From the IMG/VR virus record IMGVR_UViG_3300045988_117041: 64,000 bases of DNA. One strand, given 5' to 3'. Positions within the stretch are counted from its first letter, which is position 1. Each line of letters opens with the position of its first letter. Under the pieces are notes generated by a model. The model was not told where the DNA came from and made no database searches. It saw only the letters and a list, made by a program, of their open reading frames with translations. Both the position numbers and the translations under genes were made by a program. Positions 11,304 to 62,081 of this stretch are shown piece after piece. Source of the DNA: a virus.

Positions 11304-11528
11304 GTGTGTGACCTAAAAGCGAGAGCATGGGAAATACACACCCTTGCTTATTGTTATCACTGGTCTTTAGCAGAAATAAAAGCACTTTCCGTTAAAGAAA
11401 GAAAAATGTGGTATTTAATGGTGCTTAAACAGAAAAGAGCAGAAGAAGTTGCATTGAAGGGCAAAGACAAAGTGGAACCATCACCACTTGATGAAATGCT
11501 AGAAGAAGAAAAGGACTTTGTAATATAA
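11304..11528 (+). CDS. Small tail-assembly protein (second chaperone-position ORF)
   Basis: 74 aa, directly upstream of the tape measure gene. The start codon is uncertain. Confidence 0.4.
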   Translation: MCDLKARAWEIHTLAYCYHWSLAEIKALSVKERKMWYLMVLKQKRAEEVALKGKDKVEPSPLDEMLEEEKDFVI

Positions 11529-11547
11529 GAGAAAGGAGGTTAATACT

Positions 11548-15272: not shown

Positions 15273-15277
15273 TTCCA

Positions 15278-16391: not shown

Positions 16392-16394
16392 TTT

Positions 16395-43800: not shown

Positions 43801-44173
43801 ACATAGACACGGATATGTGTACACATTAAAACGCCGTAAAAGACGCATACCAGATATTAACAGTGATAATTTTGGTACTGTAGGGTACTGTGAGCGTGTT
43901 AGTGTCAATGCACCTATCCAGGGTAGTGCGGCAGACATAACGTCCAGTGCACAGAATCGTGTTGACCTTGACGATTTCTTTATAGAACACGGTGCACTGT
44001 TATTACTCCAAGTGCATGATGAACTTGTCATGGAATGTCCAGAAGAACACGTAGAGGTAGTCACTAAACGTCTGCAAGAGTTAATGGCACACCCATTCGG
44101 TGATAACATTGAACTGAACCTACCCCTTAGAGCAGACGCAGATTCAGGGGATTCCTACCAGGATGCCAAGTAA
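40895..44173 (+). CDS. polA: Family A DNA polymerase (3'-5' exonuclease plus polymerase), interrupted by an intein
   Basis: Exo I motif FAFDTETNGL. Motif A ACDYANLEMRVLAHF|intein|SKDKNLIDMFLSGADTHG. Motif B RQAAKIINFMLMYGG. Motif C LLLQVHDELVME. Confidence 0.85.
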   Translation: MKDERLRMMKPVVYSPFYSKWYPLRPRIEKYTIVDTIPKLRKLAKKAKTKTEFAFDTETNGLRAYGPDKNFRCVCITISWGPRDNYYIPLAHLRDEDIDRNLDLSVARPLLNKILGRKDVRLIGHNIKFDMHVLARIGVYVKTRDLFDTMVGVWLCDENTPNGLKESSKIKMDIDQTHFADAVATVPKEVKKRFGLKPNSKATYDLVLIDEGAPYALDDSYFTWELYLGLLEELEHEEMDKIFYKHYMPFIWTLYHMEERGITVDVDKLRHMGVDMDKDLEDLMYQMVEIAGIQFNPSSQQLGELLFGYVKEDKLNEKTGKITKANPNWDIIKRSFKFRIISTTPKGAPQVNNDVLWKLSRLEYKKSKRKQQGVEFVKLLMSYNKIKKLKSAFVDGLLDQIYDDGKAHPSYNIIGTDTGRLSCTSPNLQQLPKAEEEDQYQIRSVFIGSLDKSTGKRKKLIACDYANLEMRVLAHFCVQRNMPIALEDGSSIEMGSLVQKCDNSRKVKSYNFDTGKIEAQPITNFWKNGKSNLYDTPQYRGTHDDWLRIVNDGDYSRLVVTDDHEIFTPRGKVRAKNLHEGDTMYYNAPEFSDDLKELVVGITLGDSNFKDKWSGLVFYHADSQREYLDWKKSLLKDYVGEVFEDTTVNKIYLKANPFILKLKECYTQGKDNSHKLINVDIVKHMSVKSLAVWYLDDGCFSHDDRCCSMSGYSLTIARKNISLDVVKALNDKFNFNFRLTSTGISLSGSYFNKFLRAIAPYCPKCMNYKFPHFLKDLVGTYIWNTAHRDVTEVKIVSIERVQKGDPLFKKSLIQSGYDLEVFGNHNYFANNILVSNSKDKNLIDMFLSGADTHGATAVNMFNLDCEPNEVKKKYHHLRQAAKIINFMLMYGGGRFRLYTALRDDQSSPIDLGSEEYVTLYAKQIAEFKRNFRGRKVPSDGEIVAQIYIDRYFDSYKGVAEFIKREKRYAHRHGYVYTLKRRKRRIPDINSDNFGTVGYCERVSVNAPIQGSAADITSSAQNRVDLDDFFIEHGALLLLQVHDELVMECPEEHVEVVTKRLQELMAHPFGDNIELNLPLRADADSGDSYQDAK
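42323..43402 (+). mobile_element. Intein (360 aa) with a LAGLIDADG endonuclease in polymerase motif A
   Basis: Begins with Cys (CVQRNMPIALEDGSSIE). Block B VVTDDHEIF. LAGLIDADG motifs VGITLGDSNF and VWYLDDGCF. Blocks F/G YDLEVFGNHNYFANNILVSN, then +1 Ser. Confidence 0.75.
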
Positions 44174-49671: not shown

Positions 49672-50219
49672 AGCCGAAACAGAAACAGCCACCTAACACC
49701 CCTACCAAAAAAGTTAATCCCCGCCAGCTACACAAAAACTACATGGCAAACATGGAAGAACAGCTTAACAAAGAAGACATAGTGTTGTTTGACGAGGAAC
49801 TACTAAACGTAGACCAGGACTTTTTAAGTCTTCCATCACGTATCACAGAAGTACACCCAAAAGAACTAGGTGAATACTTAAGTGCATTTACACAGTACAA
49901 AATGTACGTGAGGACTATACTGTCCCGCACTGAATTGTGTATCGAGGAAAAGAAAAGGGTGTATACAGACGTGAGTAATCCTTACTACCGGGAATACACA
50001 CAGTCCAGGTTATCAGAACGCGCAAAAGACCAGCTTGTGCAGAGTGAGCCGGAGGTGCAGGAAAGCTACTATGAATTGGTGGACTACATCAATAAGTCTA
50101 ACACCCTAAAGAGTGTGTTAGAGAACATAGAGGACGCTATCTTTTTAATAAGTCGTGAAATATCCCGCAGAACAGGTGATATGAAAGACGAGAATAGACA
50201 GCACAATGTAGGTAGATAG
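49662..50219 (+). CDS. Hypothetical protein (weak resemblance to a UvsY-type mediator)
   Basis: 185 aa, helical. Its context (RecA, SSB, nucleases) suggests a recombination role. Confidence 0.25.
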   Translation: MGLKPKQKQPPNTPTKKVNPRQLHKNYMANMEEQLNKEDIVLFDEELLNVDQDFLSLPSRITEVHPKELGEYLSAFTQYKMYVRTILSRTELCIEEKKRVYTDVSNPYYREYTQSRLSERAKDQLVQSEPEVQESYYELVDYINKSNTLKSVLENIEDAIFLISREISRRTGDMKDENRQHNVGR

Positions 50220-50230
50220 TCAGTGTTTTA

Positions 50231-50257
50231 GTGCGTCTGAAATATGACGCACTTTTC
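50231..50257 (+). terminator. Rho-independent terminator
   Basis: GTGCGTC pairs with GACGCAC, followed by TTTT. Confidence 0.6.
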
Positions 50258-50259
50258 AT

Positions 50260-50288
50260 TTGCTTAAATACATATAATGCGGTATAAT
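50260..50288 (+). promoter_or_regulatory. Sigma-A-type promoter
   Basis: TTGCTT, 17-nt spacer, TATAAT. A second TATAAT lies at 50273-50278. Confidence 0.45.
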
Positions 50289-50324
50289 GATAACCACAAT
50301 AAAGTGCAGAAAGGAGTTAAGAAA

Positions 50325-50801
50325 TTGCCAAAGTTAAAGATTAACAGTAAGGGTGCAGAGAACAAAGAAAAAGTGCACAGAGAAGCCCAGAGAAGGGGAA
50401 AGAGAAACAAAGTCAAAGGTGGTGAGTATGAACGCAAAGTTGCTGAAATACTCAAAGGTATGTTAGGTGTTGAGTTTGTGAGAACACCGCAGAGCGGAGG
50501 GTTTGCAAAGAAATCGGACGCAAACACCAAAGACTTTAGAGGTGACATTATACCGCTTGACGCAGACGTTGAGACGGTCTTGCATATAGAGTGCAAGAAC
50601 TATAAGAACTGGGCCATGCCAAAGTGGGTAGCACAGGCTGAGAGTGATTGTCCCAAAGGTAAGATTCCTTGTGTTATCTTCCACAAGTACGGAACCTCAC
50701 GGGACTATATCGTGTTAGACCTCAAACACTTCTTAAAACTTATCCATATCCCGGAGGTTATCATAAAGACCGTGACAAAGAAAAGGGGTGCTAGTAAATG
50801 A
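50325..50801 (+). CDS. PD-(D/E)xK nuclease, paralogue of 47577-48098
   Basis: GGEYERKVAEIL..TPQSGGF..RGDII..HIECKN shows the same pattern. TTG 50325 follows AAAGGAG; the track start overlaps the promoter. Confidence 0.5.
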   Translation: MPKLKINSKGAENKEKVHREAQRRGKRNKVKGGEYERKVAEILKGMLGVEFVRTPQSGGFAKKSDANTKDFRGDIIPLDADVETVLHIECKNYKNWAMPKWVAQAESDCPKGKIPCVIFHKYGTSRDYIVLDLKHFLKLIHIPEVIIKTVTKKRGASK

Positions 50802-51172
50802 TGGTGTTGTTAAATGTAAGCTGGGCTATTGTAGCGTGTGTGATTGCGCGATACCTTTACAAACACCCAATTTTAAGAATACATGGTCGTTCAATGTACC
50901 CCACATACAAAGATGGTGATGTTGTGCTGGGCTTAAGATACAACTACAAACACTGTGACATAAGACAAGGTTCTGTAGTTGTAGTGAATAGTCCGAATGG
51001 TGTTAAAGCCATAAAGAGAGCCACAGCGTTTAAGTACAAAGAAGGTATTATGTATGTGTGGGTTGAGGGTGATAACCCCAGTGAAAGTTATGACAGCAGA
51101 AACTACGGGTGGTTGACTACAAAAGACATTGTAGCGATTGACCCTAAACCAAGAGTAAAGGAGAAAGTATAA
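50798..51172 (+). CDS. Signal peptidase I (S26 family), minimal form
   Basis: N-terminal TM segment, GRSMYPTYKDGDVV (Ser box), VKAIKRATA (Lys box) and GDNPSESYDSRNYGW (box E). Confidence 0.65.
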   Translation: MMVLLNVSWAIVACVIARYLYKHPILRIHGRSMYPTYKDGDVVLGLRYNYKHCDIRQGSVVVVNSPNGVKAIKRATAFKYKEGIMYVWVEGDNPSESYDSRNYGWLTTKDIVAIDPKPRVKEKV

Positions 51173-51174
51173 CC

Positions 51175-51474
51175 ATGGGTAAGACAGAAAACACCAACAC
51201 CGAAGGAGTTACCATTGTTCATGTTTCCTCAGACACCAACGTGCAGAAGTTGGCAGGTAGTCTTTTAACTGCCATTGAAAATAGCACCGCTGTAGAGGTG
51301 AGAGCGATTGGTGCCGGGGCAGTGAACCAGATGTATAAAGCTATCGCAAGTGCGAGAGGTTATGTTGCGCGTAAAGGACGTGACCTGTATATAAGACCCG
51401 GCTTTGATGAAGTCATTGAAGAAGGTTCTGAAAAGACAAAGACCGTCATGGTCGCAAGACTTATTGTGATGTAA
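51175..51474 (+). CDS. spoVS: SpoVS-like protein
   Basis: KLAGSLLTAIENSTAVEVRAIGAGAVNQMYKAIASARGYV parallels B. subtilis SpoVS (...AEIQAIGAGALNQAVKAVAIARGFV). Confidence 0.65.
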   Translation: MGKTENTNTEGVTIVHVSSDTNVQKLAGSLLTAIENSTAVEVRAIGAGAVNQMYKAIASARGYVARKGRDLYIRPGFDEVIEEGSEKTKTVMVARLIVM

Positions 51475-51494
51475 GACCGAAAGGAGAAGTCATA

Positions 51495-51704
51495 ATGAGC
51501 AAGATATTGGGGTATTTCACAGAAGACGAGATTTATTACCACGGAAAGAAACAACCACCTAGAAAGACCAAAATAATAGCCATAGGGTGTAACCCAATGT
51601 TTAGTATTGAAGACTACGCCGAAGATGAAGATATACAGGTGTTAAGTGAAGACGAAAATTGGTACACCATAAAGAAGAAAGACATAATATTAGGGGAGTG
51701 TTAA
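51495..51704 (+). CDS. Hypothetical protein
   Basis: 69 aa with SD AAAGGAG. Confidence 0.5.
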   Translation: MSKILGYFTEDEIYYHGKKQPPRKTKIIAIGCNPMFSIEDYAEDEDIQVLSEDENWYTIKKKDIILGEC

Positions 51705-51705
51705 T

Positions 51706-52092
51706 ATGAAAACGAGTATTACAAAAATGTTCACCTTTGAAGCGGCACACAGATTACCTAACTATGTAGGTGCGTGTGCTAACCTTCATGGTCATTCTTA
51801 TAAACTTGCCGTGACTGTCACCACAGATAAGCCTTTAAATAAAGACCGCAACGCAACGGGTATGATAATGGATTTTAAAGTCCTCAAAGACATTGTGAAC
51901 CGAAAGGTTGTCGGCCCGTTAGACCATTCACTGTTAAATGACTTTTACTACAACCCCACCGCCGAGATTATGGTAGAAGACTTTGCCGCGAATATACAGG
52001 CAGGACTTGATGATTTTGATGAAAGTGTGTACGTTTCAAACATTAAGTTGTGGGAGACCGAAGACAGCTATGCAGAGTGGTCGAGAGACTAG
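51706..52092 (+). CDS. queD: 6-carboxy-5,6,7,8-tetrahydropterin synthase
   Basis: FTFEAAHRLPNY...CANLHGHSYKL matches the QueD/PTPS signature. Confidence 0.8.
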   Translation: MKTSITKMFTFEAAHRLPNYVGACANLHGHSYKLAVTVTTDKPLNKDRNATGMIMDFKVLKDIVNRKVVGPLDHSLLNDFYYNPTAEIMVEDFAANIQAGLDDFDESVYVSNIKLWETEDSYAEWSRD

Positions 52093-52109
52093 AGAAAGAG
52101 GTGTTGTAT

Positions 52110-52751
52110 ATGATGTTCTATCATGAGATATTTTTATCTATACAGGGTGAATCCAGTGACGCAGGACGCCCTTGTATATTTGTAAGAATGTACGGCTGTC
52201 CGATTGGGTGTTCATATTGCGACCAGCCCCAGGAAAAGAGTGACAGAAAGCGTATTGGTGTTGACACCATGTTATCAAAGATATACGCATTGAAGTGTAA
52301 GAACGTGTGCTTCACAGGTGGAGAACCTATGATTTACGCGCAGGAACTTATACCCGTGTTTATCGAACTTACCGACCGGGGTTACACCGTGTCTGTAGAG
52401 ACCAGCGGGTGTGTAGAGTTAGAACCGTACCCAGTGAGAAGGTCATTTAAGTATGTGATGGATATTAAATGCCCCAGTAGTGAGGTGTCAGAGAAGAACA
52501 TTTACAGAAACCTTGCGTACTTACAGCCACATGACGAGGTGAAGTTTGTCGTGGCAGACGAGAAGGACTACCAATTTGCCCGTAACGTATTAAAGCGTTA
52601 TAATACCAGTGCGCAAATTTTATTTAGTCCCATGTTTGACACAGACGGCAAAGCAGTGATAGGACAAGAACTTGTGAACTGGATTTTGAGAGACAAGCTG
52701 TTTAATGCCCGGGTTCAGATTCAGTTACACAAAATTCTGTCAGTGAGGTAA
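52110..52751 (+). CDS. queE: 7-carboxy-7-deazaguanine synthase (radical SAM)
   Basis: EIFLSIQGES..GRPCIFVRMYGCPIGCSYCDQ matches the QueE N-terminal signature. Confidence 0.8.
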   Translation: MMFYHEIFLSIQGESSDAGRPCIFVRMYGCPIGCSYCDQPQEKSDRKRIGVDTMLSKIYALKCKNVCFTGGEPMIYAQELIPVFIELTDRGYTVSVETSGCVELEPYPVRRSFKYVMDIKCPSSEVSEKNIYRNLAYLQPHDEVKFVVADEKDYQFARNVLKRYNTSAQILFSPMFDTDGKAVIGQELVNWILRDKLFNARVQIQLHKILSVR

Positions 52752-52755
52752 ACAC

Positions 52756-53478
52756 ATGATTGGAAAACGTAACCCAGAAAAAGACCAAGACTATTACAAT
52801 GGTCTGATTGAGAGTATATGGTATAATCTAGTAGAGGTTAAATCAGAACTTACAGGTATTAAAGAGGAAGTAAACAAATACCATCCATTTAAAGAAGACC
52901 CAGGACACCTTAGTGCTGAAAGATTACCCGTAAAGAAAAATACTATTAGGGAGCACTTAAAGGAGGGTTATCTTCCTAAAAGACCCGTTAAGGTGTTCAG
53001 TAACCGGGACGAAGCATATGATTGTTTATACTACTGGTTAGAGAAGTTATATCTTACCGATTGGGCCATAAAACTTAAATTCGTGCGGATAAATGAAGAA
53101 CCACTGAATGACGAACAGTCTGGCAATGTACACAGAGTATTTGAGCAGAAAGCGGCGATAATCACCCTCCCATTACCAGACGATAACTTTCTTGACACCT
53201 GTAAAAGCAGTGTTGCGAGGGTGGGCCACGAACAGTCTTTGGTGCATGAGTTATTGCACTTAAAGGAAGACCCTGTACAGTTTGTAGAAGATGGTGATTA
53301 TACCGCCGGGTTCTATAACAGACACAAACACAATGAAGTTGAAATGATGGCAAGAACACTGTTAATGGTGAAGTACAACTTATCGCCGTCTTATTTCAAT
53401 AACGTAGACAGAAAGGAGAACGACAATGGCTTGTGGCACAAAGAAACCGAAGACACCGAAGAAACCCAAAAAGAATAA
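52756..53478 (+). CDS. Hypothetical HExxH (zinc-metallohydrolase-like) protein
   Basis: 240 aa containing the motif LVHELLHLKE. Confidence 0.4.
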   Translation: MIGKRNPEKDQDYYNGLIESIWYNLVEVKSELTGIKEEVNKYHPFKEDPGHLSAERLPVKKNTIREHLKEGYLPKRPVKVFSNRDEAYDCLYYWLEKLYLTDWAIKLKFVRINEEPLNDEQSGNVHRVFEQKAAIITLPLPDDNFLDTCKSSVARVGHEQSLVHELLHLKEDPVQFVEDGDYTAGFYNRHKHNEVEMMARTLLMVKYNLSPSYFNNVDRKENDNGLWHKETEDTEETQKE

Positions 53479-53493
53479 GAAGTAGGACAACCG

Positions 53494-53524
53494 AAGACCT
53501 GTGCTAATAAAGACAGGTCTTTTC
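53494..53524 (+). terminator. Rho-independent terminator
   Basis: AAGACCTGT pairs with ACAGGTCTT, followed by TTC. Confidence 0.55.
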
Positions 53525-53544
53525 GTATGAAAGGAATACATGAC

Positions 53545-53853
53545 ATGGGACAGATATCAAAATTAGCTGAAAATGCGTATGAAACCGCAGTTGCGCACGG
53601 TTGGTATGACACACCAGTTTCGTTTGGTGAGGAAGTTGTGTTGTGTCACAGTGAGTTATCCGAAGCACTACAGGAGTTTAGAGTAGGAGGGTTTGGAACA
53701 CGTAAAGACAAGATAACTGAGGAACTAGCAGACACAGTTATAAGGATTTTTACTCTAAGTTCAAGACACCAGCTTGACATTGAAGCGGCAATATTAAAGA
53801 AGATGGAAAAGAACAAAGACAGACCATACAGACATGGAGGAAAGTTACTATGA
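53545..53853 (+). CDS. MazG-like nucleoside triphosphate pyrophosphohydrolase
   Basis: HSELSEALQEF...EELADTVIRIF fits the MazG EExxE/D pattern. Confidence 0.6.
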   Translation: MGQISKLAENAYETAVAHGWYDTPVSFGEEVVLCHSELSEALQEFRVGGFGTRKDKITEELADTVIRIFTLSSRHQLDIEAAILKKMEKNKDRPYRHGGKLL

Positions 53854-55565
53854 GTAAACCAGTTGTAGTATTAAATAGTGGAGGTTTTGACAGCACCGTA
53901 TTGTTACATTATGTAAAAGAGGTTGAAGAAGACAGTCTTGTATACTCACTGTTTTTTGAATACGGTCAGCGTTCCATGGAACAAGAAAGACGCTGTGCGC
54001 GTAAAAACTCTGTAGACCTTGACGCGCAGTATATAGGTGTCAGTCTTCCAAAGATATACTGGACTGGCAGTGACTTCTATAATGAGGGAGAGTTTAAGGT
54101 AGACAAGCAGTATCTTGAAATGAGAAATTTAATTTTTCTGTCATATGCTCTTTCCTTTGCAGAGAGTGTAGGTGCAGAAAAGGTTTATCTTGCAGTGCTG
54201 AAATCACACCACGGGTATCCAGACACATCACCTAGATTTATTAGTGCTATGAATGAGGTATCGAATATAATAGGTGTTAGTATTGAAGCACCATTTATAG
54301 AGAGTGACAAATACAACCTTGTTGGTCTTGCTTACAAGTACGGCATTACTGAAAACGACTTTCACAGTTGTGATAAACCTACTACAGACGGGAAACCGTG
54401 TGGCGTGTGTGATGATTGTGAGGTAGTAAAAGAAATCATGTCCCAGTTAGAGTTAAAACACCCACGGGACGTAAAGTTTAGTCCAAGAGGAACACATGAA
54501 CAGTATGAGACCGTCTATAAAGAGTACCCGGTGAATGAGTTAAGATTCACCATAAATAACAGGTGCCAGTTTAGTTGCGCTCATTGTTACTACGGATATG
54601 AGACTTCACACCGGGAAGACCTATCAGAGAAGGAACTTACTGAATTTGCTATCAGACTTCACAAGCAGTTTGGGTTTAAGAGTATTCACTATTGCGGCAA
54701 AGAACCTATGATTGATAGCGCGATATTTGATTCCATAAGGACACTTAGGAAGGTGTTACCCGTTGACATTGAATACAGTGTTGTAACAAACGGCTTAACT
54801 GTGACTGAATACTATGAGCAGTTAGTGAATGAAAGGTTGTTAGACAAGGTGTTCCTGTCCGTTGATGATATTGAGACAGTGACGGATAAAGAACAGAAGT
54901 TACGAAACACCAGTAGGCATATATTAAATGCTATAGACTTCCTGGTTACGAATAAAGTTCCGTTACAAGTGTTTATTGACCTTCACAAAGGTAACTACAA
55001 CTACATCAATGAAATGTTGTATCAGTTAGTGAAGTTAGGTGTTAGAGAGTTTTTCGTCCGGGCAATAATGCCAATAGGTAACGCCGAAGACCTTGAACCT
55101 CTGTCCATAGCAGAGATAGCGGAAGTGTACAGTAAACTTAAGAGGTTGACAAACTATTACCACACCACCGTTAAAGACTTTAAAGTACTTCTTACTTTAG
55201 GTAAAGACGTTATAGTCCGTATGCAGGAGCGTGACATTGACGATATGACAAAAGACGAGGAAGACTTAATAGAAATGGTTGCAAAGTCTTTAGAGTATAA
55301 CACAGACGTTGTTGTGCCGGGAATGAGTATATACCCGGAGGAAGTTTGCACACAGTTTCTTGATACTCTTACCCTTACATCAGACGGGTATGTGTTAGGC
55401 TGTACTTCCGCTGTAAGCTGTAGTGAGTACTGGAAACACAGCGCGTTTGATATAAATACACCAGACGAGGACTTCAAGAATCGTTTGATTGAAGCAAGAA
55501 GTAAGGTGTTAGAGTATGACGGTGAAAATTGTCCATTTTCTTGTCCCAAAAGTATTGACATTTAA
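53850..55565 (+). CDS. queC: QueC (7-cyano-7-deazaguanine synthase) fused to a radical-SAM domain with C-terminal Cys-rich (SPASM/twitch-like) region
   Basis: PP-loop VVVLNSGGFDSTV. QueC zinc motif CGVCDDCEV. Then CQFSCAHCYY (CX3CX2C, 54564-54587). Further Cys residues in CTQF, GCTSAVSC and CPFSCP. Confidence 0.7.
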   Translation: MSKPVVVLNSGGFDSTVLLHYVKEVEEDSLVYSLFFEYGQRSMEQERRCARKNSVDLDAQYIGVSLPKIYWTGSDFYNEGEFKVDKQYLEMRNLIFLSYALSFAESVGAEKVYLAVLKSHHGYPDTSPRFISAMNEVSNIIGVSIEAPFIESDKYNLVGLAYKYGITENDFHSCDKPTTDGKPCGVCDDCEVVKEIMSQLELKHPRDVKFSPRGTHEQYETVYKEYPVNELRFTINNRCQFSCAHCYYGYETSHREDLSEKELTEFAIRLHKQFGFKSIHYCGKEPMIDSAIFDSIRTLRKVLPVDIEYSVVTNGLTVTEYYEQLVNERLLDKVFLSVDDIETVTDKEQKLRNTSRHILNAIDFLVTNKVPLQVFIDLHKGNYNYINEMLYQLVKLGVREFFVRAIMPIGNAEDLEPLSIAEIAEVYSKLKRLTNYYHTTVKDFKVLLTLGKDVIVRMQERDIDDMTKDEEDLIEMVAKSLEYNTDVVVPGMSIYPEEVCTQFLDTLTLTSDGYVLGCTSAVSCSEYWKHSAFDINTPDEDFKNRLIEARSKVLEYDGENCPFSCPKSIDI

Positions 55566-55582
55566 TACTCATGGTGTATAAT
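55555..55582 (+). promoter_or_regulatory. Near-consensus sigma-A promoter inside the 3' end of queC-rSAM
   Basis: TTGACA, 16-nt spacer, TATAAT. Confidence 0.55.
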
Positions 55583-55671
55583 TGTATTCAGAGATTTAGG
55601 AATGGCGTAGGTCTTCCGTATTTACCTACAGCCTAGTCCCTTGCTCACAATACGATAAGGAGGTAAACACC

Positions 55672-55848
55672 ATGATGAATGTTTACGCAGAATCCCCCAA
55701 AGGTGGCGGGCGTGCCGCTGGTGGTAATGCACAGCAGACTGCACCCGCACCGACCAGAGGTGGAGTAAGAGCCACACTGGGTAGAGCGGCTACAGGTGCA
55801 AGAAACGCGCTGAACAGGATTATTCGTCCCAGAGGACGTAACCGTTAA
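55672..55848 (+). CDS. Small Gly/Ala/Arg-rich basic protein (not in the ORF track)
   Basis: 58 aa, MMNVYAESPKGGGRAAGGNAQQTAPAPTRGGVRATLGRAATGARNALNRIIRPRGRNR. SD AAGGAGG lies 8 nt upstream. Confidence 0.55.
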   Translation: MMNVYAESPKGGGRAAGGNAQQTAPAPTRGGVRATLGRAATGARNALNRIIRPRGRNR

Positions 55849-55870
55849 TCAGTCCCGCACCAAGAAAGAG

Positions 55871-55905
55871 AGAAGTCCTAATAAACTGGGACTTCTTTTC
55901 TTTTA
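55871..55905 (+). terminator. Rho-independent terminator
   Basis: AGAAGTCC pairs with GGACTTCT, followed by TTTCTTTT. Confidence 0.6.
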
Positions 55906-55950
55906 CCCGGATTTATGTTATACTGTCATAAAAAGAAAGGAGACAACACA

Positions 55951-56205
55951 ATGTATATTGAATCACCAAGAGACAAAGAAGGAGTTAGAGATTGGGAAGC
56001 AGAGGAAGACGCACAGGCATTATTAAAAGCCCGGCAGATTAATGCAGACCCCGTAAGAAAAGCAAAAGCACAGGCGGTTATAAGGAGTATCCAAGCCACG
56101 TTAAAAGGTGCTTTGACGGGGACACCTCCTGTAAACACGCCGAGTTCAAGAAATAACCCCGCCACTATCGGACAGTTAAACATTCCCAGCAGAAACAGAA
56201 GATAA
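55951..56205 (+). CDS. Hypothetical small protein with a basic C-terminus
   Basis: 84 aa. ATG 55951 follows AAAGGAG. The track start at 55915 overlaps the TGtTATACT promoter element. Confidence 0.5.
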   Translation: MYIESPRDKEGVRDWEAEEDAQALLKARQINADPVRKAKAQAVIRSIQATLKGALTGTPPVNTPSSRNNPATIGQLNIPSRNRR

Positions 56206-56260
56206 CACCAGAACACCACAAACACATTATATACTTACAGAAGACAGAAAGGAATCGCGC

Positions 56261-56812
56261 ATGAACGATAAGTACAATTTGAGTTCAAAAGAGCAGGATA
56301 TAGCCAGCCATATAAAAGGTATAATGAGTTTGCTAGGTATTGAGGAAACACCATCAAACATAGACACCCCAAAGCGGATAGCGAAAATGTATAGCCGCGA
56401 AGTGTTTAGCAGTGAAGGTAAAGACCTAGCCGAACTTGACGCACAAATGACTACTTTCATTAACACGGATTTGAGTTCAATGCCCGTGACAATGACCGGG
56501 ATTAAATTTAGTTCCATGTGTGCACACCACTGGCTACCATTTTTCGGTGAAGTAGAGATAAGCTACACACCATTTACTAAAGTGATTGGGCTGTCAAAAC
56601 TGCCGCGAGTTGTGAAGTGGTTCAGTAAAAAGCCACAGACCCAGGAAGAAATGACGAAAGAGATAGGGAACTACTTAGCAGTGTTCCTTAATCCCCGTAA
56701 ACTGTCCGTGAAGGTAACAGCATTGCATACTTGCGTAGCGTGTAGGGGAATTGAGAGCGTAGGGACAGAGACCATAACTGAATACAGATATAACAGAGGG
56801 GAAGACGCTTAA
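56261..56812 (+). CDS. folE: GTP cyclohydrolase I
   Basis: SSMCAHHWLPFFG and KKPQTQEEMTKEI match the FolE signatures. Confidence 0.8.
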   Translation: MNDKYNLSSKEQDIASHIKGIMSLLGIEETPSNIDTPKRIAKMYSREVFSSEGKDLAELDAQMTTFINTDLSSMPVTMTGIKFSSMCAHHWLPFFGEVEISYTPFTKVIGLSKLPRVVKWFSKKPQTQEEMTKEIGNYLAVFLNPRKLSVKVTALHTCVACRGIESVGTETITEYRYNRGEDA

Positions 56813-56829
56813 CGGCGTCTTTTCTTTTG
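56801..56829 (+). terminator. Rho-independent terminator after folE
   Basis: GAAGACGC pairs with GCGTCTTT, followed by TCTTTT. Confidence 0.6.
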
Positions 56830-56876
56830 CGCGCAATATGATATAATAAGTACATAACTTATGAAAGAGGTGAACC

Positions 56877-57458
56877 ATGAAGGTAGCAATATTTAATGGC
56901 AGTTCAAGACAGCATAGTAACAGTGAACTAATCTCAGGTGAATTAAGACGTATATTTGAGCGTCTAGGGTATGACACCGTAGTGCTCAATGCAAGTGACA
57001 TGACAGGCTGTAGACCATGTAATCAATGTGGATTCTGTAGTTCAGTAGGTAGCTGTATATATGAAAGAGATACTCTGGGACAACACCATATTAAATGTAT
57101 ATGGGCTAGTGACATATGGGTGATTGTAACACCTGTGTATTGCTTTTCCATGTCCCCGCCGACCTTGACGTTACTGTCCCGGTTTTATTCTTATGGCCCA
57201 GAAGTGTTGCAAGATAAAGTTGTGTCTTCTGTGATAGTAAGTGGCAGTAGCGGTAGATATGGTGGAAAGAGCCTTGTAAATGAATCCTTTAAGCGATACT
57301 TTGAATATACAGGTGCTAACTATACAAACAAGCCCATAGGTATCACTACAAACGACACCGTGTTAGAAGACCTGCATACACTTACACCACGGTTAAGACT
57401 ATTTTGTAAAGACTTGATAAGGAGAGCGAAAAATGCTGAAAATAGTACCAAGGACTAA
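56877..57458 (+). CDS. Flavodoxin-fold FMN reductase / iron-sulfur flavoprotein-like
   Basis: MKVAIFNGSSRQHSNS (NADPH-dependent FMN reductase N-terminus) plus the Cys cluster CRPCNQCGFCSSVGSC. Confidence 0.55.
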   Translation: MKVAIFNGSSRQHSNSELISGELRRIFERLGYDTVVLNASDMTGCRPCNQCGFCSSVGSCIYERDTLGQHHIKCIWASDIWVIVTPVYCFSMSPPTLTLLSRFYSYGPEVLQDKVVSSVIVSGSSGRYGGKSLVNESFKRYFEYTGANYTNKPIGITTNDTVLEDLHTLTPRLRLFCKDLIRRAKNAENSTKD

Positions 57459-59601
57459 AAAGAAACCCGTACCAAAGAAAAAGGTTCCACCAAAAAAGAA
57501 GACCACCACGCCCGTAGAGATAGACGAGACCCCGGAAGTAGAGGAAGAACCAAAAAAGAACTATAGTTCTCTGCATGATGTAATGGACACTAACAGACCT
57601 TTTAAGTTAGTGTTTTCTGGCGTTGAGAATGAAAGCTACTATGACATACTTTTTGATTGCGGCGTGCGTAGCTTTCTAATGTCCTATCACTATATCCAGA
57701 GCAAGCACATTAAAATGCGTGATAGGTTTGATGGGACGGGTGTTAAACTGTTTATTGATAGTGGCGCGCATACATACCAGAATGACCCTAAATATCTGGA
57801 ACTTCCGTTAGAGTATTGGGAGAAGCACTTGCAGAAGTACCTTAACTGGGTTGAGCGGAATAGAAAGTATATATTTGCCATAGCAAGTTTTGACTTTGAG
57901 AACATTGTAGGTGCAGACACAGTAGATAGGTGGAACCGAGAATACTTAGAACCGTTCATGTTGCGCACAGGTATACCAGTGTGTTTCGTGTGGCACCAAA
58001 ATTCAAAGTATGACTGGGAGTTCTATTGCAAGCGTTATCCCTATGTGGGATTTTCGTCTGTCAATACAGAAGGTGAAGCCATAGAACTATCAGAGTATAA
58101 ACAAAGACTGAAAGTGGCAGAGAAGAACGAAGCACTTGTACACGGGTTCGGTATGACGCGTACAGGTATGTTGACTGAACTTCCCTTCTACACCTCAGAT
58201 AGTACGACATGGCTTGTGGGTTTGCAGTATGGGGAAATGAACTACTGGAATGGCACCAAAATGAACCGCCTTAAGAAAGACAAGTGGAAATCACCTGCTG
58301 TACTATCAGAGTTTGAGAGAAGGTATAACTCAGACCAAACACTGTTAGAGCAGGAAGACATAACCGAGGTGATAAAAGTCAATGTGTTTGCTTTCCTTGA
58401 CGCAGAGGATTATATCGTCACCAAGCTACGTTCTCAAATGTACTGGTTAAAAGCAAAGACAACTAAACGGGACGTGAATAACTTACCGCCAGACTTCTTT
58501 CCAGACCCTGACATGGTGATGGTGTGTTTAGACGAAGGTGATAAAAGTGTAGTGTCATATGCTCAGAAATTTAATATCAACCCGGAATATGCTGACGCTG
58601 ACTTTTTAGTGTGTTGTGCTACATTGTTCCTTAACTGGGATAACTCAATATACAGTGACTGTAAGGACATACTCATTGAGGACGAAGCAGTGATTAAATC
58701 CCTCCATGACACACTGATAAACAGGATAGTCCCAGGTGTTGATGAAATGGTCGAAGACCTAACGCAGTTATTCAAAGAGTGCATAAGCGGTGAGAATGAC
58801 AAGCTATTACAGATAGGCACCAACTTTGACCGCGCACAGAAAGAGCGTGAACACTATATAGAGGAAGAAGACGAGTATGAGGAAGTAGAAGTATCAGAAG
58901 GTGAGATAAGGGCCGCTGTGTATAACAACATTCCTAAAGACCGTCTTCTTACCGCAGGTGAAGATTCCGCGCCAGAGATTACGGAACTTGACGCAGAAAT
59001 ATTTAACGGCACAGGTATAACACCACGTTTTGATGATAGAGGTAAATTCCTTAAAGGTGTTAGACAAGTAAAGAAACCAAAGTCCGTGTACAGTAAGAAG
59101 TTCCCTAAACTGGCGTGTGCTACGTGTTTCGCGGCAAGTACGTGTCCAGAATACAAAGACGGCTATGTGTGTGCTTATAATAAGCTGTTCAGCAACTATG
59201 ACACACGTAACATGGGTGACATTGTAGAAGCTATGCAATCCATGGCAAGTGTGAACATGGGCCGCCTACAGAAAGCAATGCTGTTTGAGACACTAGGTGG
59301 TGCATTAGACCCACAGGTATCACAGCTTATTAATCAGAACGTCACTTTGCTGAACAACCTTAAGTCAATGTATGAGAACACCAACGCAATGGTGCTTAAA
59401 CAGACCCGCAATATAAGACAGGACGGAAGTGTAGAAGAATCTGTGCAAGTAACCAATCCTCATAGCATGGGTATTATGGAACAGTTACTATCAAAGATAA
59501 TGCCTAGCAGTGATAAAGAAGACGAGGTTATAGTTGAATCAGAGGACGTAACACCCAAAAAGAAAAGCAGTGCATATGCAGACCTGGAAGAAGACGACTA
59601 A
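57433..59601 (+). CDS. dpdA: DpdA-like DNA-guanine transglycosylase (TGT superfamily) with a ~390-aa C-terminal extension
   Basis: FLMSYHYI...KLFIDSGAHTY...VGFSSV resembles phage DpdA. Lies in a cluster with queCDE and folE. The C-terminal part is acidic and contains CATCFAASTCPEYKDGYVC. Confidence 0.55.
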   Translation: MLKIVPRTKKKPVPKKKVPPKKKTTTPVEIDETPEVEEEPKKNYSSLHDVMDTNRPFKLVFSGVENESYYDILFDCGVRSFLMSYHYIQSKHIKMRDRFDGTGVKLFIDSGAHTYQNDPKYLELPLEYWEKHLQKYLNWVERNRKYIFAIASFDFENIVGADTVDRWNREYLEPFMLRTGIPVCFVWHQNSKYDWEFYCKRYPYVGFSSVNTEGEAIELSEYKQRLKVAEKNEALVHGFGMTRTGMLTELPFYTSDSTTWLVGLQYGEMNYWNGTKMNRLKKDKWKSPAVLSEFERRYNSDQTLLEQEDITEVIKVNVFAFLDAEDYIVTKLRSQMYWLKAKTTKRDVNNLPPDFFPDPDMVMVCLDEGDKSVVSYAQKFNINPEYADADFLVCCATLFLNWDNSIYSDCKDILIEDEAVIKSLHDTLINRIVPGVDEMVEDLTQLFKECISGENDKLLQIGTNFDRAQKEREHYIEEEDEYEEVEVSEGEIRAAVYNNIPKDRLLTAGEDSAPEITELDAEIFNGTGITPRFDDRGKFLKGVRQVKKPKSVYSKKFPKLACATCFAASTCPEYKDGYVCAYNKLFSNYDTRNMGDIVEAMQSMASVNMGRLQKAMLFETLGGALDPQVSQLINQNVTLLNNLKSMYENTNAMVLKQTRNIRQDGSVEESVQVTNPHSMGIMEQLLSKIMPSSDKEDEVIVESEDVTPKKKSSAYADLEEDD

Positions 59602-59616
59602 ACCCGTCTTCTTTTC
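59590..59616 (+). terminator. Rho-independent terminator
   Basis: GAAGACG pairs with CGTCTTC, followed by TTTT. Confidence 0.6.
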
Positions 59617-59632
59617 CATTTTACAGGATTAC

Positions 59633-59660
59633 TTGACAGTTTCCTTATTAAAGCTATAAT
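59633..59660 (+). promoter_or_regulatory. Near-consensus sigma-A promoter
   Basis: TTGACA, 16-nt spacer, TATAAT. Confidence 0.55.
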
Positions 59661-59698
59661 AATGCCATTAAACACCCAATACGAAAGCGAGGAACACC

Positions 59699-60442
59699 AT
59701 GAAGAAATCAACTCTATTTAAAATGACAAGGCCGCACCCAATTAAAGCATTTTTAGACCGCATAACCCGCAAGTTTATGGACTGGGTAAATAACCTTCTT
59801 TTAGCCATGACTAAACACCCGCTCTTTGGGAAGTTCGTAAAACTGCATGAGAAAAGAACTGTACACCCCTTTAGAAATCTGTCTGATGGCATAATGCACT
59901 TAGGGACTGTTAGTGATTCATATATGACCTGGACAGCCACGGGTATTCTTGAGTGTGTAGAAACCAGCATTAAATCACACATAACCATATTTGACCGGGG
60001 CCGTTTCTTTGAACATGAGCAGTGCTGGGTAGACAAGAACGTGCGTTGCAAGTTAGGTATAACAAGACTTACCGTGTTGTTGAACGGCGAAATTAAAGAG
60101 ATAGAAGCGCGAGGTAAAAGACAACGGTTTAATATCTATAACCCACATACTACATTAGCACCATTTGACCTTCATGATGGCAATACTAAAGAGGTGCGAG
60201 AAGAAATAGTGGTCGTTAATTTCAGTGAGGTGATGGGATATAACTTTAGAATACCCGTAACAATAGGTAGTATGTGTAACATGACCGAGGGTGATATTAT
60301 AGTCGAGACAATGATGTGTATTAGACATTTCGCAGAAAACAACTATGAGCTATACCGGGAAGTGTTTGATAAGTGTGTTATACCCAATGACTTAACATGG
60401 ATAACACCCGTTCCAGAAATTAGGCCACTGAGAAAGGAATAA
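59699..60442 (+). CDS. Hypothetical protein
   Basis: 247 aa with SD GAGGA. Confidence 0.55.
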   Translation: MKKSTLFKMTRPHPIKAFLDRITRKFMDWVNNLLLAMTKHPLFGKFVKLHEKRTVHPFRNLSDGIMHLGTVSDSYMTWTATGILECVETSIKSHITIFDRGRFFEHEQCWVDKNVRCKLGITRLTVLLNGEIKEIEARGKRQRFNIYNPHTTLAPFDLHDGNTKEVREEIVVVNFSEVMGYNFRIPVTIGSMCNMTEGDIIVETMMCIRHFAENNYELYREVFDKCVIPNDLTWITPVPEIRPLRKE

Positions 60443-60444
60443 CT

Positions 60445-60473
60445 TTGACAGCATTTACCATATATGCTACACT
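60445..60473 (+). promoter_or_regulatory. Sigma-A-type promoter
   Basis: TTGACA, 17-nt spacer, TGcTACACT. Confidence 0.5.
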
Positions 60474-60520
60474 GTACCAGTATCACTATTAAACAACCAC
60501 ATACAAAAGGAGGAAAAGAA

Positions 60521-61201
60521 ATGGCAGTAATCAGAACAAGTACAGGTGAGAAGCCCAAGAGAGGGGAGCTGTACTACGTCTATCCGCAGATGGCGTGGGA
60601 CAATGATGATTCTGAGAAAGGGACAAGCAGAACTGATGTAAAGAGTGGGAGACCCGCTATCATTATTGGTAATGACGCTGGGAATGGTGCTTCTGATATG
60701 TGTGTTATTGCGTGGCTTACACGTCAAGACAAAGCACCTTTACCAGAACACGTTACAGTACCTTCCGGCCCCGCCAAAGAATCAACTATGTTGCTGGAAC
60801 ACCCCATCACCGTGTCTCAATCGCGTTTAGGTGAAAAGATTAGCACCTGTTCCACACCATTAATGAAGAAAGTTGATTCTGCATTGCTGGTATCTATAGG
60901 TATATGTGATACCTTACAAGACGCGGAATATCTGTTAAAATGTCGTGCTATGGTGTATGACTTGCAAGCGCAGGTAGATACATATAAGCATGAGTTAGAG
61001 CAGAAAGACGCGGAAATTAAAGCACTGAATGATAAACTTGAATCACACGACACGAACATAAGAGATTTAAGTAATCGGTTAGAGTGTGCGGAAAGCAGAA
61101 CACCTATAAACCCAAGTGATTTAAAACTTGAACTGGTGTTAAATGAGCGGGATTATTTGAGAGACCTTGTTAAGCTGTCAATGACAGGAGGTATTATCTA
61201 A
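60521..61201 (+). CDS. PemK/MazF-fold domain fused to a C-terminal coiled coil
   Basis: RGELYYVYP...GRPAIIIGNDAGN...CVIAWLT...STMLLEHPITVSQSRL fits the MazF/PemK pattern. The C-terminal ~90 aa form a heptad-rich coiled coil. Confidence 0.5.
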   Translation: MAVIRTSTGEKPKRGELYYVYPQMAWDNDDSEKGTSRTDVKSGRPAIIIGNDAGNGASDMCVIAWLTRQDKAPLPEHVTVPSGPAKESTMLLEHPITVSQSRLGEKISTCSTPLMKKVDSALLVSIGICDTLQDAEYLLKCRAMVYDLQAQVDTYKHELEQKDAEIKALNDKLESHDTNIRDLSNRLECAESRTPINPSDLKLELVLNERDYLRDLVKLSMTGGII

Positions 61202-61261
61202 TGAGTGTGAGAAGGGACGTATATTTAAGTAGACACGTTATACAGTGAAAGAGGCATACAT

Positions 61262-61567
61262 ATGACAAATAAACAGCGAGAGGATTATGCCCGTTATCTT
61301 TCACGATTGACAATACAAGAATTGGGCGAAGAATGGGACAGCGTAACAGAAGACATTTTAAGAAAGGCACACAAGAAGCGCAAGACCAATGATAAAATTG
61401 TAATTGAATACCCATGGGTAAAGAAGCAGGAAGAAACACCATCTAAAAAGGTGTTGAAAGTCAGAAAAAAGAAAAAACATAAACCTTCTTTGTGTGCGAA
61501 AAAGAAGGGAAAGAAGAAATGCAAAAGATTTATACCCCCCGTACCAGGGAGAAAGCGCAACAATTAA
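61262..61567 (+). CDS. Hypothetical Lys-rich protein
   Basis: 101 aa with a highly basic C-terminus, KKVLKVRKKKKHK...KKKGKKKCKR. Confidence 0.5.
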   Translation: MTNKQREDYARYLSRLTIQELGEEWDSVTEDILRKAHKKRKTNDKIVIEYPWVKKQEETPSKKVLKVRKKKKHKPSLCAKKKGKKKCKRFIPPVPGRKRNN

Positions 61568-61764
61568 TATCGTATTACATTTCAAAGTGGGAACAGTCTA
61601 ATCACCCGGTAGTCATTAAAGACGCAGACTTAGAAGACCTTGTAAAAGCTATTTACAGACGGGCCGCGAACACAAAGACTACAGAACGTGAAGCAGTATG
61701 GGACTATCTGACAGAGTTCTACACAGACACACCAGAAGATGATGATTGGTTCATTGAAGATTAA
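61519..61764 (+). CDS. Hypothetical protein
   Basis: 81 aa. ATG 61519 follows AAGGGA. Overlaps the previous gene by 49 nt in the -1 frame. Confidence 0.45.
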   Translation: MQKIYTPRTREKAQQLISYYISKWEQSNHPVVIKDADLEDLVKAIYRRAANTKTTEREAVWDYLTEFYTDTPEDDDWFIED

Positions 61765-61796
61765 GTAACCCATATAGGATATGCACAGATGGAAGT

Positions 61797-61825
61797 TTGT
61801 GTGTATCCTATTTTTGTGCTACAAT
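61797..61825 (+). promoter_or_regulatory. Sigma-A-type promoter
   Basis: TTGTGT, 17-nt spacer, TGcTACAAT. Confidence 0.45.
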
Positions 61826-61901
61826 ACCTTTAGAAACACCACACCGTTACATTAAGGGTAATTAATAACCCACCATGAAATACATACAAGGAGGTCACAT
61901 A

Positions 61902-62081
61902 ATGAGTAAGAAAGACGAAAATGTCCACGTAGTCCCCAACTGCACAATAACAAGGATGTTAAGTGCAAACGGGAGCAAAACACCTTTACCTACACTTGAT
62001 AGTAAAGGAGTGTGTTCAGGTGTTATGAAAGGTAAAACACCATACGCGCTGTGTCAGCAGTGCCGAGTATTTAAGAAGTAA
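61902..62081 (+). CDS. Hypothetical small Cys-containing protein
   Basis: 59 aa. ATG 61902 follows AAGGAGG. Confidence 0.5.
   Translation: MSKKDENVHVVPNCTITRMLSANGSKTPLPTLDSKGVCSGVMKGKTPYALCQQCRVFKK

Follow-up and report, generated by a model that had tools for sequence, protein, structure and literature searches.

Eight 7-deazaguanine bases are known in DNA. The DpdA transglycosylases form four phage subfamilies, or five groups if the bacterial one is included. To our knowledge, every new tailoring enzyme to date has revealed a new base. We describe here a predicted 7-deazaguanine DNA-modification cluster at positions 51706-59601 of a 64,000-nt stretch of viral DNA (IMG/VR record IMGVR_UViG_3300045988_117041), referred to below as the window. 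Its QueC, the enzyme that makes 7-cyano-7-deazaguanine (preQ0), is fused to a radical S-adenosylmethionine (radical-SAM) domain, and the cluster also encodes an iron-sulfur (Fe-S) flavoprotein and an HExxH protein. The system as a whole rests on comparative evidence. From this evidence, we put at about 0.5 the probability that a product other than preQ0 or 7-amido-7-deazaguanine (ADG) would be made before insertion into DNA.

The nearest isolate is Bacillus phage BCD7 (Becedseptimavirus), with a DpdA that is 41.5% identical over 66% of its length in a tblastn search. BCD7 is listed as a phage with DpdA and FolE/QueD/QueE/QueC, and is predicted to carry dPreQ0 (Hutinet 2019, Supplementary Data 1). 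Like the window, it has S26, SpoVS, QueD, QueE, QueC, two small basic proteins, FolE and a long DpdA in this order. The BCD7 DpdA (757 aa) has the same C-terminal Cys motif, and the Cas4-like nuclease and RusA neighbours are shared. On the other hand, BCD7 has a plain QueC of 215 aa, its cluster is without a radical-SAM domain, FMN (flavin mononucleotide) reductase, HExxH protein or MazG, and the gate residue of its DpdA is Tyr.

Fusion of QueC to a second catalytic domain is known from the Gat-QueC of phage 9g, in the pathway to dG+ (Hutinet 2019; Cui 2023). As in the window, a fusion that would lead beyond preQ0 stands with FolE, QueD, QueE and a DpdA1-type enzyme. The partner in 9g is an N-terminal glutamine amidotransferase, whereas that in the window is a C-terminal radical-SAM domain with a dedicated Fe-S flavoprotein. 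Other accessory genes in DpdA clusters, DpdL, DpdM and DpdN, diversify the 7-substituent together with shifts in DpdA specificity (Cui et al. 2023). In this they resemble the extra genes of the window, but they are a T-fold protein, a methylase and a formyltransferase, and none is a radical-SAM enzyme, flavoprotein or zincin.

A radical-SAM step after preQ0 is found in Euryarchaeota, where RaSEA acts in complex with ArcS on tRNA-bound preQ0-lysine; RaSEA is the only described radical-SAM enzyme acting downstream of preQ0 (PMC11298593). It is like the window protein by function alone, as a radical-SAM enzyme physically coupled to an enzyme that handles 7-deazaguanine. The partner ArcS is a TGT (tRNA-guanine transglycosylase) paralog, whereas the partner in the window is QueC. 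No ArcS-like gene was found in the window region. No RaSEA-named model was among the 25 best NCBIfam matches, and whether NCBIfam holds one is not known. The literature searched held no description of a QueC-radical-SAM fusion, which is also absent from the 2026 survey of the QueC family.

The window locus consists of QueD, QueE, an HExxH protein, a MazG-like protein, the QueC-radical-SAM fusion, two small basic proteins, FolE, an FMN reductase (FMNred) and DpdA. All long open reading frames (ORFs) of the region lie on the plus strand, and the genes are intact (Table 1). The original prediction had named the four pathway genes, a DpdA-like gene and five extra elements at these positions, and family matches and motifs confirmed them. 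It had also recognized a gene set for 7-deazaguanine DNA modification. This was borne out by homology, in that FolE, QueD, QueE and QueC all gave family matches and showed their catalytic motifs (Pfam, NCBIfam and PHROG). As the preQ0 pathway is complete and the DpdA belongs with those of BCD7 and the DpdA1 type, 7-deazaguanine DNA modification would be the expected output of the cluster.

The QueC domain of the fusion has SGGFDS at residue 10, YGQRS at 38, EMRN at 90 and YPDT at 123. Canonical QueC (PF06508 cluster 1) has SGGxDS, C(x)8CxxCxxC, YxQxHxxE, VPxRN and YPDC (Libby et al. 2026). The zinc site in the window, C174-x9-C184-x2-C187-x2-C190, has a spacer one residue longer than the canonical one. 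In the pocket, the His is replaced in YGQRSMEQE, which fits Y-x-Q-x5-E, the RN is kept in EMRN, and the Cys is changed to Thr in YPDT. The plain QueCs of the lineage show identical variants of these pocket motifs.

The fusion protein is 571 aa long (53850-55565). Its radical-SAM motifs, C239-x3-C243-x2-C246, GKEP at 283 and VTNG at 312, were all invariant in 28 aligned sequences, as were the P-loop and zinc site of QueC. In the C-terminal twitch-like region, C500 and C518 were invariant in the same sequences, and a Cys near 561/565 was usually kept. This is consistent with one twitch-like auxiliary cluster in the radical-SAM domain. PF13186 (SPASM) was recorded in a few homologs only.

An AlphaFold2 (AF2) model of the fusion was obtained with a predicted local distance difference test (pLDDT) of 87.6 and a predicted template-modelling score (pTM) of 0.84. 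Foldseek matched the N-terminal half to QueC and the C-terminal half to the twitch/SPASM enzymes SkfB, SuiB, CteB, DesII, viperin, MoaA, BlsE and anSME. The probability was 1.00 for SkfB, SuiB, MoaA, viperin and anSME. These structural neighbours act on peptides, sugar nucleotides and nucleoside triphosphates (NTPs).

Relatives of the fusion were searched among 5.8 billion proteins, and 202 were found, with at least 120 clusters at 90% identity. The best 120 of the 202 were all 544-575 aa long, 119 of them with both domains recorded, on contigs of up to ~88 kb. With the radical-SAM domain alone, 46 representative clusters were found at E<=1e-30; nearly all were ~530-585 aa long, and the match started near residue 205-235. 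Some 65 representative clusters of the domain were found, almost all of them QueC fusions. Free radical-SAM paralogs also occurred inside the same type of cluster. No true homolog of the radical-SAM domain or of the flavoprotein was present in the GenBank phage records (50,697 searched). The radical-SAM domain is an orphan subfamily of the twitch/SPASM type, almost confined to the 7-deazaguanine cluster, either fused or free.

The free paralogs, of 285-296 aa, were seen between FolE and DpdA, overlapping the DpdA start, in five related loci (L070:2238-3128, L111:7001-7867, L113:7001-7870, L112:305-1180 and L060:4479-5336). L060 combines the fusion, a free paralog and FMNred.

The FMNred protein carries the motif C45-x2-C48-x2-C51-x2-C54-x5-C60 (57009-57056), of which C45, C51, C54 and C60 were invariant in 8 homologs. 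Its profile matched flavodoxin-like NAD(P)H:FMN reductases (1RLI at 2e-11). In the iron-sulfur flavoprotein (Isf), a CX2CX2CX4-7C motif binds a [4Fe-4S] cluster. By fold family and Cys motif, we predict that the FMNred protein is an Isf-like Fe-S flavoprotein. It shares with the Isf of anaerobes (PF03358) the flavodoxin-like fold and a compact N-proximal Cys motif. It is unlike Isf in being phage-encoded, translationally coupled to DpdA, and confined to QueC-radical-SAM clusters.

The HExxH protein had no match in Pfam, NCBIfam or PHROG, and its 10 homologs had none in Pfam. The conserved core covers residues ~88-215, and the N-terminal ~87 aa are specific to the phage group of the window. The homologs are 124-174 aa long with the core LVHELLH...H...E. 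H164, E165, H168 and H192 were invariant in them, and E196 was present in 9/10. The best match of the profile in the PDB was weak (E 0.03), to MJ1213 (4QHF-4QHJ), which we take to be the minigluzincin selecase. The HExxH protein is a candidate minimal zincin-type hydrolase, as judged from these conserved residues.

The DpdA-like protein has 722 aa (57433-59601), and its start overlaps the end of FMNred by 26 nt. Its motifs are D109-S-G-A-H113, D154 in FDFEN, H188, the loop V205-G214, HGFGMT at 237, and D256-STTW. D109, D154 and D256 were invariant in 14 DpdAs of the lineage. The tblastn search reached the 9g-type (Nonagvirus) DpdA at E 4e-6, and its matches included BCD7, BRock, SE1, JenP1 and Mycobacterium phages. 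The matches compared with Data 1 of Hutinet 2019 (BCD7, BRock, SE1, JenP1 and Bipper) are all entered there under DpdA, and no DpdA2 carrier of that table was among the tblastn matches. When a 14-sequence N-terminal DpdA profile was aligned with the DpdA of Salmonella phage SE1 by hhalign (probability 98.7%, E 3.6e-16), FIDSGAHTY paired with FLDSGAFSA, VHGFGMT with VHGFGIT, YTSDSTTW with YSCDSSSW, and VGFSSVNTEG with the Gly-rich LGGLVGAS. Judged by the catalogue labels of the carriers and by comparison with 9g-type sequences, the window DpdA can be placed as DpdA1-related.

Pfam TGT did not match the window DpdA, and hhalign gave no alignment of the DpdA profile with E. coli Tgt. Its assignment to the TGT superfamily is thus based on the alignment with DpdA1 and on PHROG 887. 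Against PDB sequences, the profile gave only chance-level matches to porins.

In bacterial DpdA, Asp95 is the acid/base, Phe99 the stacking gate and Asp256 the nucleophile; Asp130 and a Gly-rich loop that reads the 7-substituent are further active-site elements (PMC10164549). From the motifs and the hhalign mapping, we infer that D109, H113, D154, the loop 205-214 and D256 are the counterparts of these residues. The gate position, four residues after the general-acid Asp, is thus occupied by His113 (DSGAHTY), and not by the aromatic Phe of S. Montevideo DpdA (Phe99) and of the 9g-type DpdA1. Eight positions were specific to the clade of His-type DpdAs (H113, Y128, F153, F155, V186, S191, T212 and Y222). 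Their mean distance from the inferred catalytic residues was 6.5 residues, against 14.4 for random positions (p 0.03). The C-terminal extension, specific to this lineage, may be a built-in module for DNA binding or oligomerisation. Its Cys4 motif, C562-x2-C-x5-C-x8-C580 (59116-59178), was kept in all DpdAs of the lineage, including that of BCD7.

About 100 related loci were collected from IMG/VR, GTDB genomes, metagenomes and contig look-ups, and were annotated by iterated hidden Markov model (HMM) searches seeded with the window proteins. Dereplication at 95% identity of the DpdA core left 23 clusters. The common gene order was S26-SpoVS-QueD-QueE-[variable slot]-QueC-[small proteins]-FolE-[slot]-DpdA. 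QueC occurred in four forms: a plain protein of ~205 aa; the radical-SAM fusion; a plain QueC accompanied by a free paralog of the radical-SAM domain (285-296 aa) between FolE and DpdA; and a fusion to an unrelated domain of ~240 aa, with a total length of 446 aa.

FMNred was present in 6/12 clusters with the fusion and in 0/11 of the others (p ~0.009), and QueE was present in all. The His gate was found in 6/6 clusters with FMNred and in 1/17 of the rest (Fisher p ~7e-5); in the remaining 16/17 the residue was Tyr or Phe. Homologs of the HExxH protein were found in six clusters, all six of which had a fused or free radical-SAM gene (p ~0.017; two short contigs were undeterminable). The sole exception to the link between His gate and FMNred was L038 (12153-14735), a BCD7-like locus with plain QueC, whose 860-aa DpdA reads DSGAHTF. 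FMNred was not found within its flanks.

Two near-isogenic groups, L010/L014 with the fusion and FMNred and L027/L028 with plain QueC, were compared protein by protein. The backbone proteins were highly similar (SpoVS 98-99%, QueD 91%, QueE 88-97%, FolE 90-92% and S26 80-89% identity). On the other hand, the identity of the QueC domain was 43-45%, and that of DpdA was 48-62% in the N-terminal domain versus 70-88% in the C-terminal part (most alignment windows). The His-type DpdA cores formed one clade, whereas the backbones, QueC and radical-SAM domains of the same phages were scattered among others. As read from these comparisons, near-isogenic phages swap the QueC type, FMNred and the DpdA catalytic domain by recombination.

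Several observations weigh against a new product. Distinct catalytic motifs in fused QueC domains were looked for and rejected, the motifs being the same in fused and plain forms. A split of the radical-SAM clades by FMNred was likewise rejected, as the neighbour-joining tree showed none. In fusion clusters that lack FMNred, the DpdA cores were at least 80% identical to those of plain-QueC clusters (L011/L006 vs L082; L015-type vs L075), so the radical-SAM domain alone need not change the inserted base. FMNred adjoins DpdA and the His-type cores are one clade, so linkage from a single acquisition could explain the association. The p-values ignore phylogeny, and the flanks of the loci cover 9-10 kb, so that genes elsewhere in the genomes may be missed. 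Neither the radical-SAM domain nor its nearest free relatives reached a curated cut-off in NCBIfam; in an orphan subfamily of this kind the reaction is not readable from homology. AF2 of the HExxH protein with 8 sequences gave an unusable model (pLDDT 38.8).

Much of this would fit an output of plain dPreQ0 or dADG, the same base as in phages of the BCD7 type. Three of the extras, namely the radical-SAM domain, the flavoprotein and the HExxH protein, would then be helpers or passengers. They might, for instance, give redox support in hosts that are strict anaerobes, or be unrelated accessory genes that settled in a recombination hot spot. The at least 80% identity of the DpdA cores between FMNred-less fusion loci and plain-QueC loci, the likeness of the QueC motifs, and the unrelated inserts collected at the QueE-QueC and FolE-DpdA junctions favour this explanation, and adjacency with common descent can account for the association of FMNred and DpdA. 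But FMNred never occurred with plain QueC, though QueE, itself a radical-SAM enzyme that needs a reductant, is in every locus. The invariant CX3CX2C and C-terminal Cys residues predict, from their conservation, a maintained active enzyme. The confinement of the radical-SAM family essentially to this cluster, across ~65 divergent clusters, argues for a pathway role under selection. We consider the plain output a possible explanation, though an unlikely one.

For a product other than preQ0 or ADG made before insertion, we propose that the cassette would replace guanine by a 7-deazaguanine in phage DNA after replication. By homology, FolE would convert GTP to dihydroneopterin triphosphate (H2NTP), QueD would make carboxytetrahydropterin (CPH4) and QueE would make 7-carboxy-7-deazaguanine (CDG), from which the QueC domain, with ATP and ammonia, would make preQ0. 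We infer that the radical-SAM domain would then tailor the QueC product, or an amine adduct of it, in parallel to RaSEA and ArcS on preQ0-lysine; that the Isf-like [4Fe-4S] flavoprotein would supply it with low-potential electrons; that the zincin-like HExxH protein may hydrolyse an intermediate; and that the co-inherited DpdA subtype, with His113 for the base-stacking Phe/Tyr and an altered 7-substituent loop, would accept and insert the resulting base. The TGT-like domain of DpdA would swap the base into DNA with D256 as nucleophile and D109 as acid/base, and the Cys4/TerS-like C-terminal part would probably supply DNA binding. The output would be a 7-deazaguanine other than plain preQ0.

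The tailoring could also follow insertion. DpdA would insert preQ0 and the radical-SAM domain would modify dPreQ0 in DNA, to dG+ (archaeosine) or to a new derivative, as ArcS/RaSEA and QueF-L do on tRNA and DpdC does on DNA. RaSEA acts on a base that is already in place, and does so as a complex with the adduct-forming enzyme (PMC11298593). This order would explain the ordinary DpdA core of fusion loci without FMNred, and the free paralog is translationally coupled to DpdA in some phages. On the other hand, a nucleic-acid-binding domain was not detected in the fusion by Pfam, NCBIfam or Foldseek, an ArcS-like partner is missing, and the distinct DpdA pocket subtype of the FMNred group is left unexplained. 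We consider this order of events improbable.

The product might also be a deazaguanylated peptide, similar to a ribosomally synthesized and post-translationally modified peptide (RiPP). In the manner of Cap9 and QatC, QueC would ligate CDG to a peptide amine, the radical-SAM domain would trim the peptide or cross-link it, and the zincin would release it; the neighbouring small basic protein would be substrate or scaffold. The RiPP maturases SkfB, SuiB and CteB are the closest structural neighbours of the radical-SAM domain, and the QueC domain has the Cap9-type Y-x-Q-x5-E instead of YxQxHxxE. QueC-family enzymes can conjugate 7-deazaguanine to protein N-termini, which gives a precedent (PMC13329287). 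In nearly all loci examined, QueC is also followed by a small ORF that has a strong promoter and encodes a conserved N-terminus. However, the small proteins and the same QueC variants are present in plain-QueC phages, including BCD7, without a radical-SAM or zincin gene. The N-terminus of the small protein is not Gly, no RiPP recognition element (RRE) domain was found, and DpdA, for which no role other than base exchange in nucleic acid is known, is always in the cluster. A peptide product is highly improbable on these grounds.

The original prediction had taken the extra enzymes as signs of chemistry beyond dPreQ0. This view is supported in part, by the radical-SAM domain and the Fe-S flavoprotein and, more weakly, by the HExxH protein, which behave as an optional module tied to the cluster. 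It was not supported for the other two extras. The MazG-like protein would be a generic phage dNTP pyrophosphatase outside the tailoring module. The small basic proteins, both families of which occur in plain and fused clusters including BCD7 and thus lie outside the module, would be a lineage-wide, separately transcribed feature.

Table 1. Features of the modification cluster of the window (positions are those of the whole stretch).
Feature	Coordinates	Strand	Evidence
QueD (6-carboxytetrahydropterin synthase), 128 aa	51706..52092	+	PF01242 2.9e-29; TIGR03367 91.5 bits vs 89.25 cut-off; CxxxHGH motif as C24ANLHGH
QueE (7-carboxy-7-deazaguanine synthase, radical SAM), 213 aa	52110..52751	+	TIGR04349 4.2e-57; PF04055 1.6e-9; PHROG 2076 2e-38; CX3CX2C as CPIGCSYC
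HExxH protein, 240 aa	52756..53478	+	HELLH at residues 164-168 (53245-53259); no family match
MazG-like all-alpha NTP pyrophosphohydrolase, 108 aa	53527..53853	+	PHROG 3301 'pyrophosphatase' 2.3e-26
QueC domain of fusion, residues 1-~200	53850..54449	+	PF06508 1e-33 (residues 5-193); Foldseek to QueC 2PG3, 3BL5
Radical-SAM domain of fusion, residues ~201-571	54450..55565	+	PF04055 9e-14 (residues 235-381); CX3CX2C; AF2 and Foldseek
Sigma-70 consensus promoter TTGACA-16-TATAAT	55555..55582	+	12/12 match; end of fusion gene, upstream of 58-aa gene
Small basic protein, 58 aa, isoelectric point (pI) 12.0, Gly/Arg-rich	55672..55848	+	No family match (Pfam, NCBIfam, PHROG)
Second small basic protein, 84 aa, pI ~10	55951..56205	+	No credible family match (one chance-level NCBIfam match)
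FolE (GTP cyclohydrolase I), 183 aa	56261..56812	+	PF01227 3.4e-44; NF006824 2e-42; CAHH at residue 87, CVAC at 158
Iron-sulfur-flavoprotein-like FMN reductase, 193 aa	56877..57458	+	PF03358 7.2e-16, 58.6 bits vs cut-off 24
DpdA, Lys-rich N-terminus and TGT-like catalytic domain, residues 1-~340	57433..58452	+	PHROG 887 'queuine tRNA-ribosyltransferase' 9e-73; tblastn; hhalign
DpdA, C-terminal extension, residues ~341-722	58453..59601	+	Cys4 motif; weak match to PHROG 6902 'terminase small subunit' 6e-7 (residues 554-703)

For QueE, the ATG at 52110 was taken as the start, the ORF being open from a GTG at 52050. The MazG-like protein matched PF12643 and PF03819 at ~1e-4, below the gathering cut-offs (22.5 vs 27 bits; 21.9 vs 22), and gave weak PDB matches to dCTPase-like pyrophosphatases (4QGP, E 0.007). 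Among the related loci compared, its gene was confined to the species group of the window itself, namely the window and its nearest relatives L047-L049. A MazG/dUTPase-like neighbour is also known in the DpdA cluster of Cellulophaga phage phiST (Cui et al. 2023).

The original prediction had given both small basic proteins their own promoters. For the first this was correct, its site being one of two perfect TTGACA-16-TATAAT matches in the window. For the second, only an extended -10-like element was seen by eye. A site at the place matching the first promoter scored 9-11/12 in 18/21 related loci and 8/12 in two. The 58-aa gene forms a self-contained unit (55555-55904) with the perfect promoter, a leader of ~90 nt, a strong ribosome-binding site (RBS) and a terminator-like hairpin at 55872-55904. 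Its family has the N-terminus M-x-[KN]-V-[YF]-A-[ET], followed by a G/R/N-rich tail. Homologs immediately follow QueC in almost every related locus examined, with two copies in BCD7.

The second small protein likely starts at the ATG at 55951, and would have 96 aa if started at 55915. It has the motif DW..EDA..L.A..I..DP.R. Homologs were found in L006 and L011-13 as well as in L017-22, where they lie upstream of plain QueC.

In relatives (L001-L111), the spacers between QueC and the small ORF keep a leader of comparable length, and a promoter-like site lies at the stop of QueC. This leader has a hairpin, whose stem varies and whose loop is U-rich (~UUUUUCAUAUUCC), and a pyrimidine tract that could pair with the RBS. 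When the leaders were aligned with MAFFT, RNAalifold gave no consensus structure, and no Rfam match was found. The mean minimum free energy (MFE) z-score was weakly negative (-0.78, 16 leaders). The leader of the 58-aa gene could be a cis-regulatory RNA in a 7-deazaguanine cluster, at these weak statistics. No Rfam family, preQ1-type included, was found at E<=5 in 50000-62000.

The other form of fused QueC, QueC-X (437-447 aa, with a C-terminal domain of ~240 aa without a Pfam match), was seen in L023-L026, L083, L086 and L088-L097, e.g. L023:9998-11338; the DpdA gate there is Phe. The idea that the extension is a degenerate radical-SAM domain was rejected (hhalign probability 0.2%).

The QueE-QueC and QueC-FolE junctions are hot spots of insertion. 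Among the unrelated inserts found at the QueE-QueC and FolE-DpdA junctions were homing endonucleases and a HAD-like protein. HNH-type endonucleases of 212-240 aa stood at varying positions in L003 (6956-7627, checked with Pfam), L008, L009 and L020 (cluster c18). The gene in the QueE-QueC slot could not be taken as an HExxH homolog by position, since it was an HNH endonuclease in L003 and a HAD-like hydrolase in L005 (7493-8029).

In L034, on a contig of a Clostridia metagenome-assembled genome (MAG), FolE (514 aa, 11398-12942) and DpdA (1145 aa, 13481-16918) are far longer than their orthologs, which suggests intein or homing-element insertions in both. Contig BNJT01002654.1 (137,257 bp, a 'Mogibacterium' MAG) holds two copies of the cluster (L036/L037/L067 and L039/L040/L098), with QueE, QueC, FolE and DpdA fragmented in both. 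The arrangement could reflect a concatemer or a misassembly with frameshifts, or else the copies may be decaying.

By gene content this human-gut phage is a myovirus, as the window has genes for portal, tail sheath, baseplate and tape measure. Helicases, primase, a UvsX-like recombinase, PolA with a LAGLIDADG insert, a Cas4-like nuclease, RusA, SpoVS and an S26 peptidase are encoded as well. The PolA-type DNA polymerase (1092 aa, 40895-44173) has the LAGLIDADG homing-endonuclease-like insert at residues 589-772 (PHROG 11023, 2e-11), which could be an intein or the insertion of a free-standing endonuclease. The second perfect sigma-70 promoter of the window, at 59633-59660, is directly 3' of DpdA. 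Two genes downstream of it is a MazF/PemK-like protein (60464-61201; PHROG 1936, 2e-18), and L005, L111 and L113 have PemK-like genes at the equivalent position after DpdA.

The region gave zero megablast matches to GenBank phages. A metagenome contig of 83,039 bp matches the window, with the fusion gene 100% identical, and human-gut assemblies hold 98%-identical relatives; the phage was seen in metagenome contigs only, among them PPYE01558994.1 and OPWK01000014. Binning placed a few relatives in MAGs of Clostridia or Eubacteriales and one in a Thermosipho MAG, which is weak evidence on the host.

DpdA specificity shifts with the base supplied (PMC10516641), and defence glycosylases discriminate between individual 7-deazaguanines (bioRxiv 10.1101/2025.10.29.685425). 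Diversifying selection on the cassette is plausible for both reasons. We suggest, tentatively and at somewhat less than even odds, that a large uncultured family of BCD7-related myoviruses of the human and animal gut uses the fusion, the Isf-like flavoprotein, the zincin and a co-evolved His-gate DpdA for a 7-deazaguanine outside the eight known DNA forms. Under the same tentative suggestion, the variants (plain QueC, QueC-radical-SAM, QueC-radical-SAM with FMNred, QueC with a free radical-SAM protein, and QueC-X) would be 'serotypes' of DNA modification, exchanged by recombination under defences specific for the modification.

The locus is a testable candidate for the next 7-deazaguanine DNA base, through an add-on module not previously described. 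The module occurs in dozens of divergent clusters from metagenomes of the gut and other sources, and the near-isogenic phages with and without it are natural controls, well suited to heterologous reconstruction. If the output is plain dPreQ0, the cluster would be one more ordinary example of a known system, carrying passengers without an explanation. If a new base is made, it would extend radical-SAM chemistry to DNA hypermodification and bear on the sequencing and restriction of gut-virome DNA. It would also show phages swapping modification cassettes against defences that recognise specific 7-deazaguanines.

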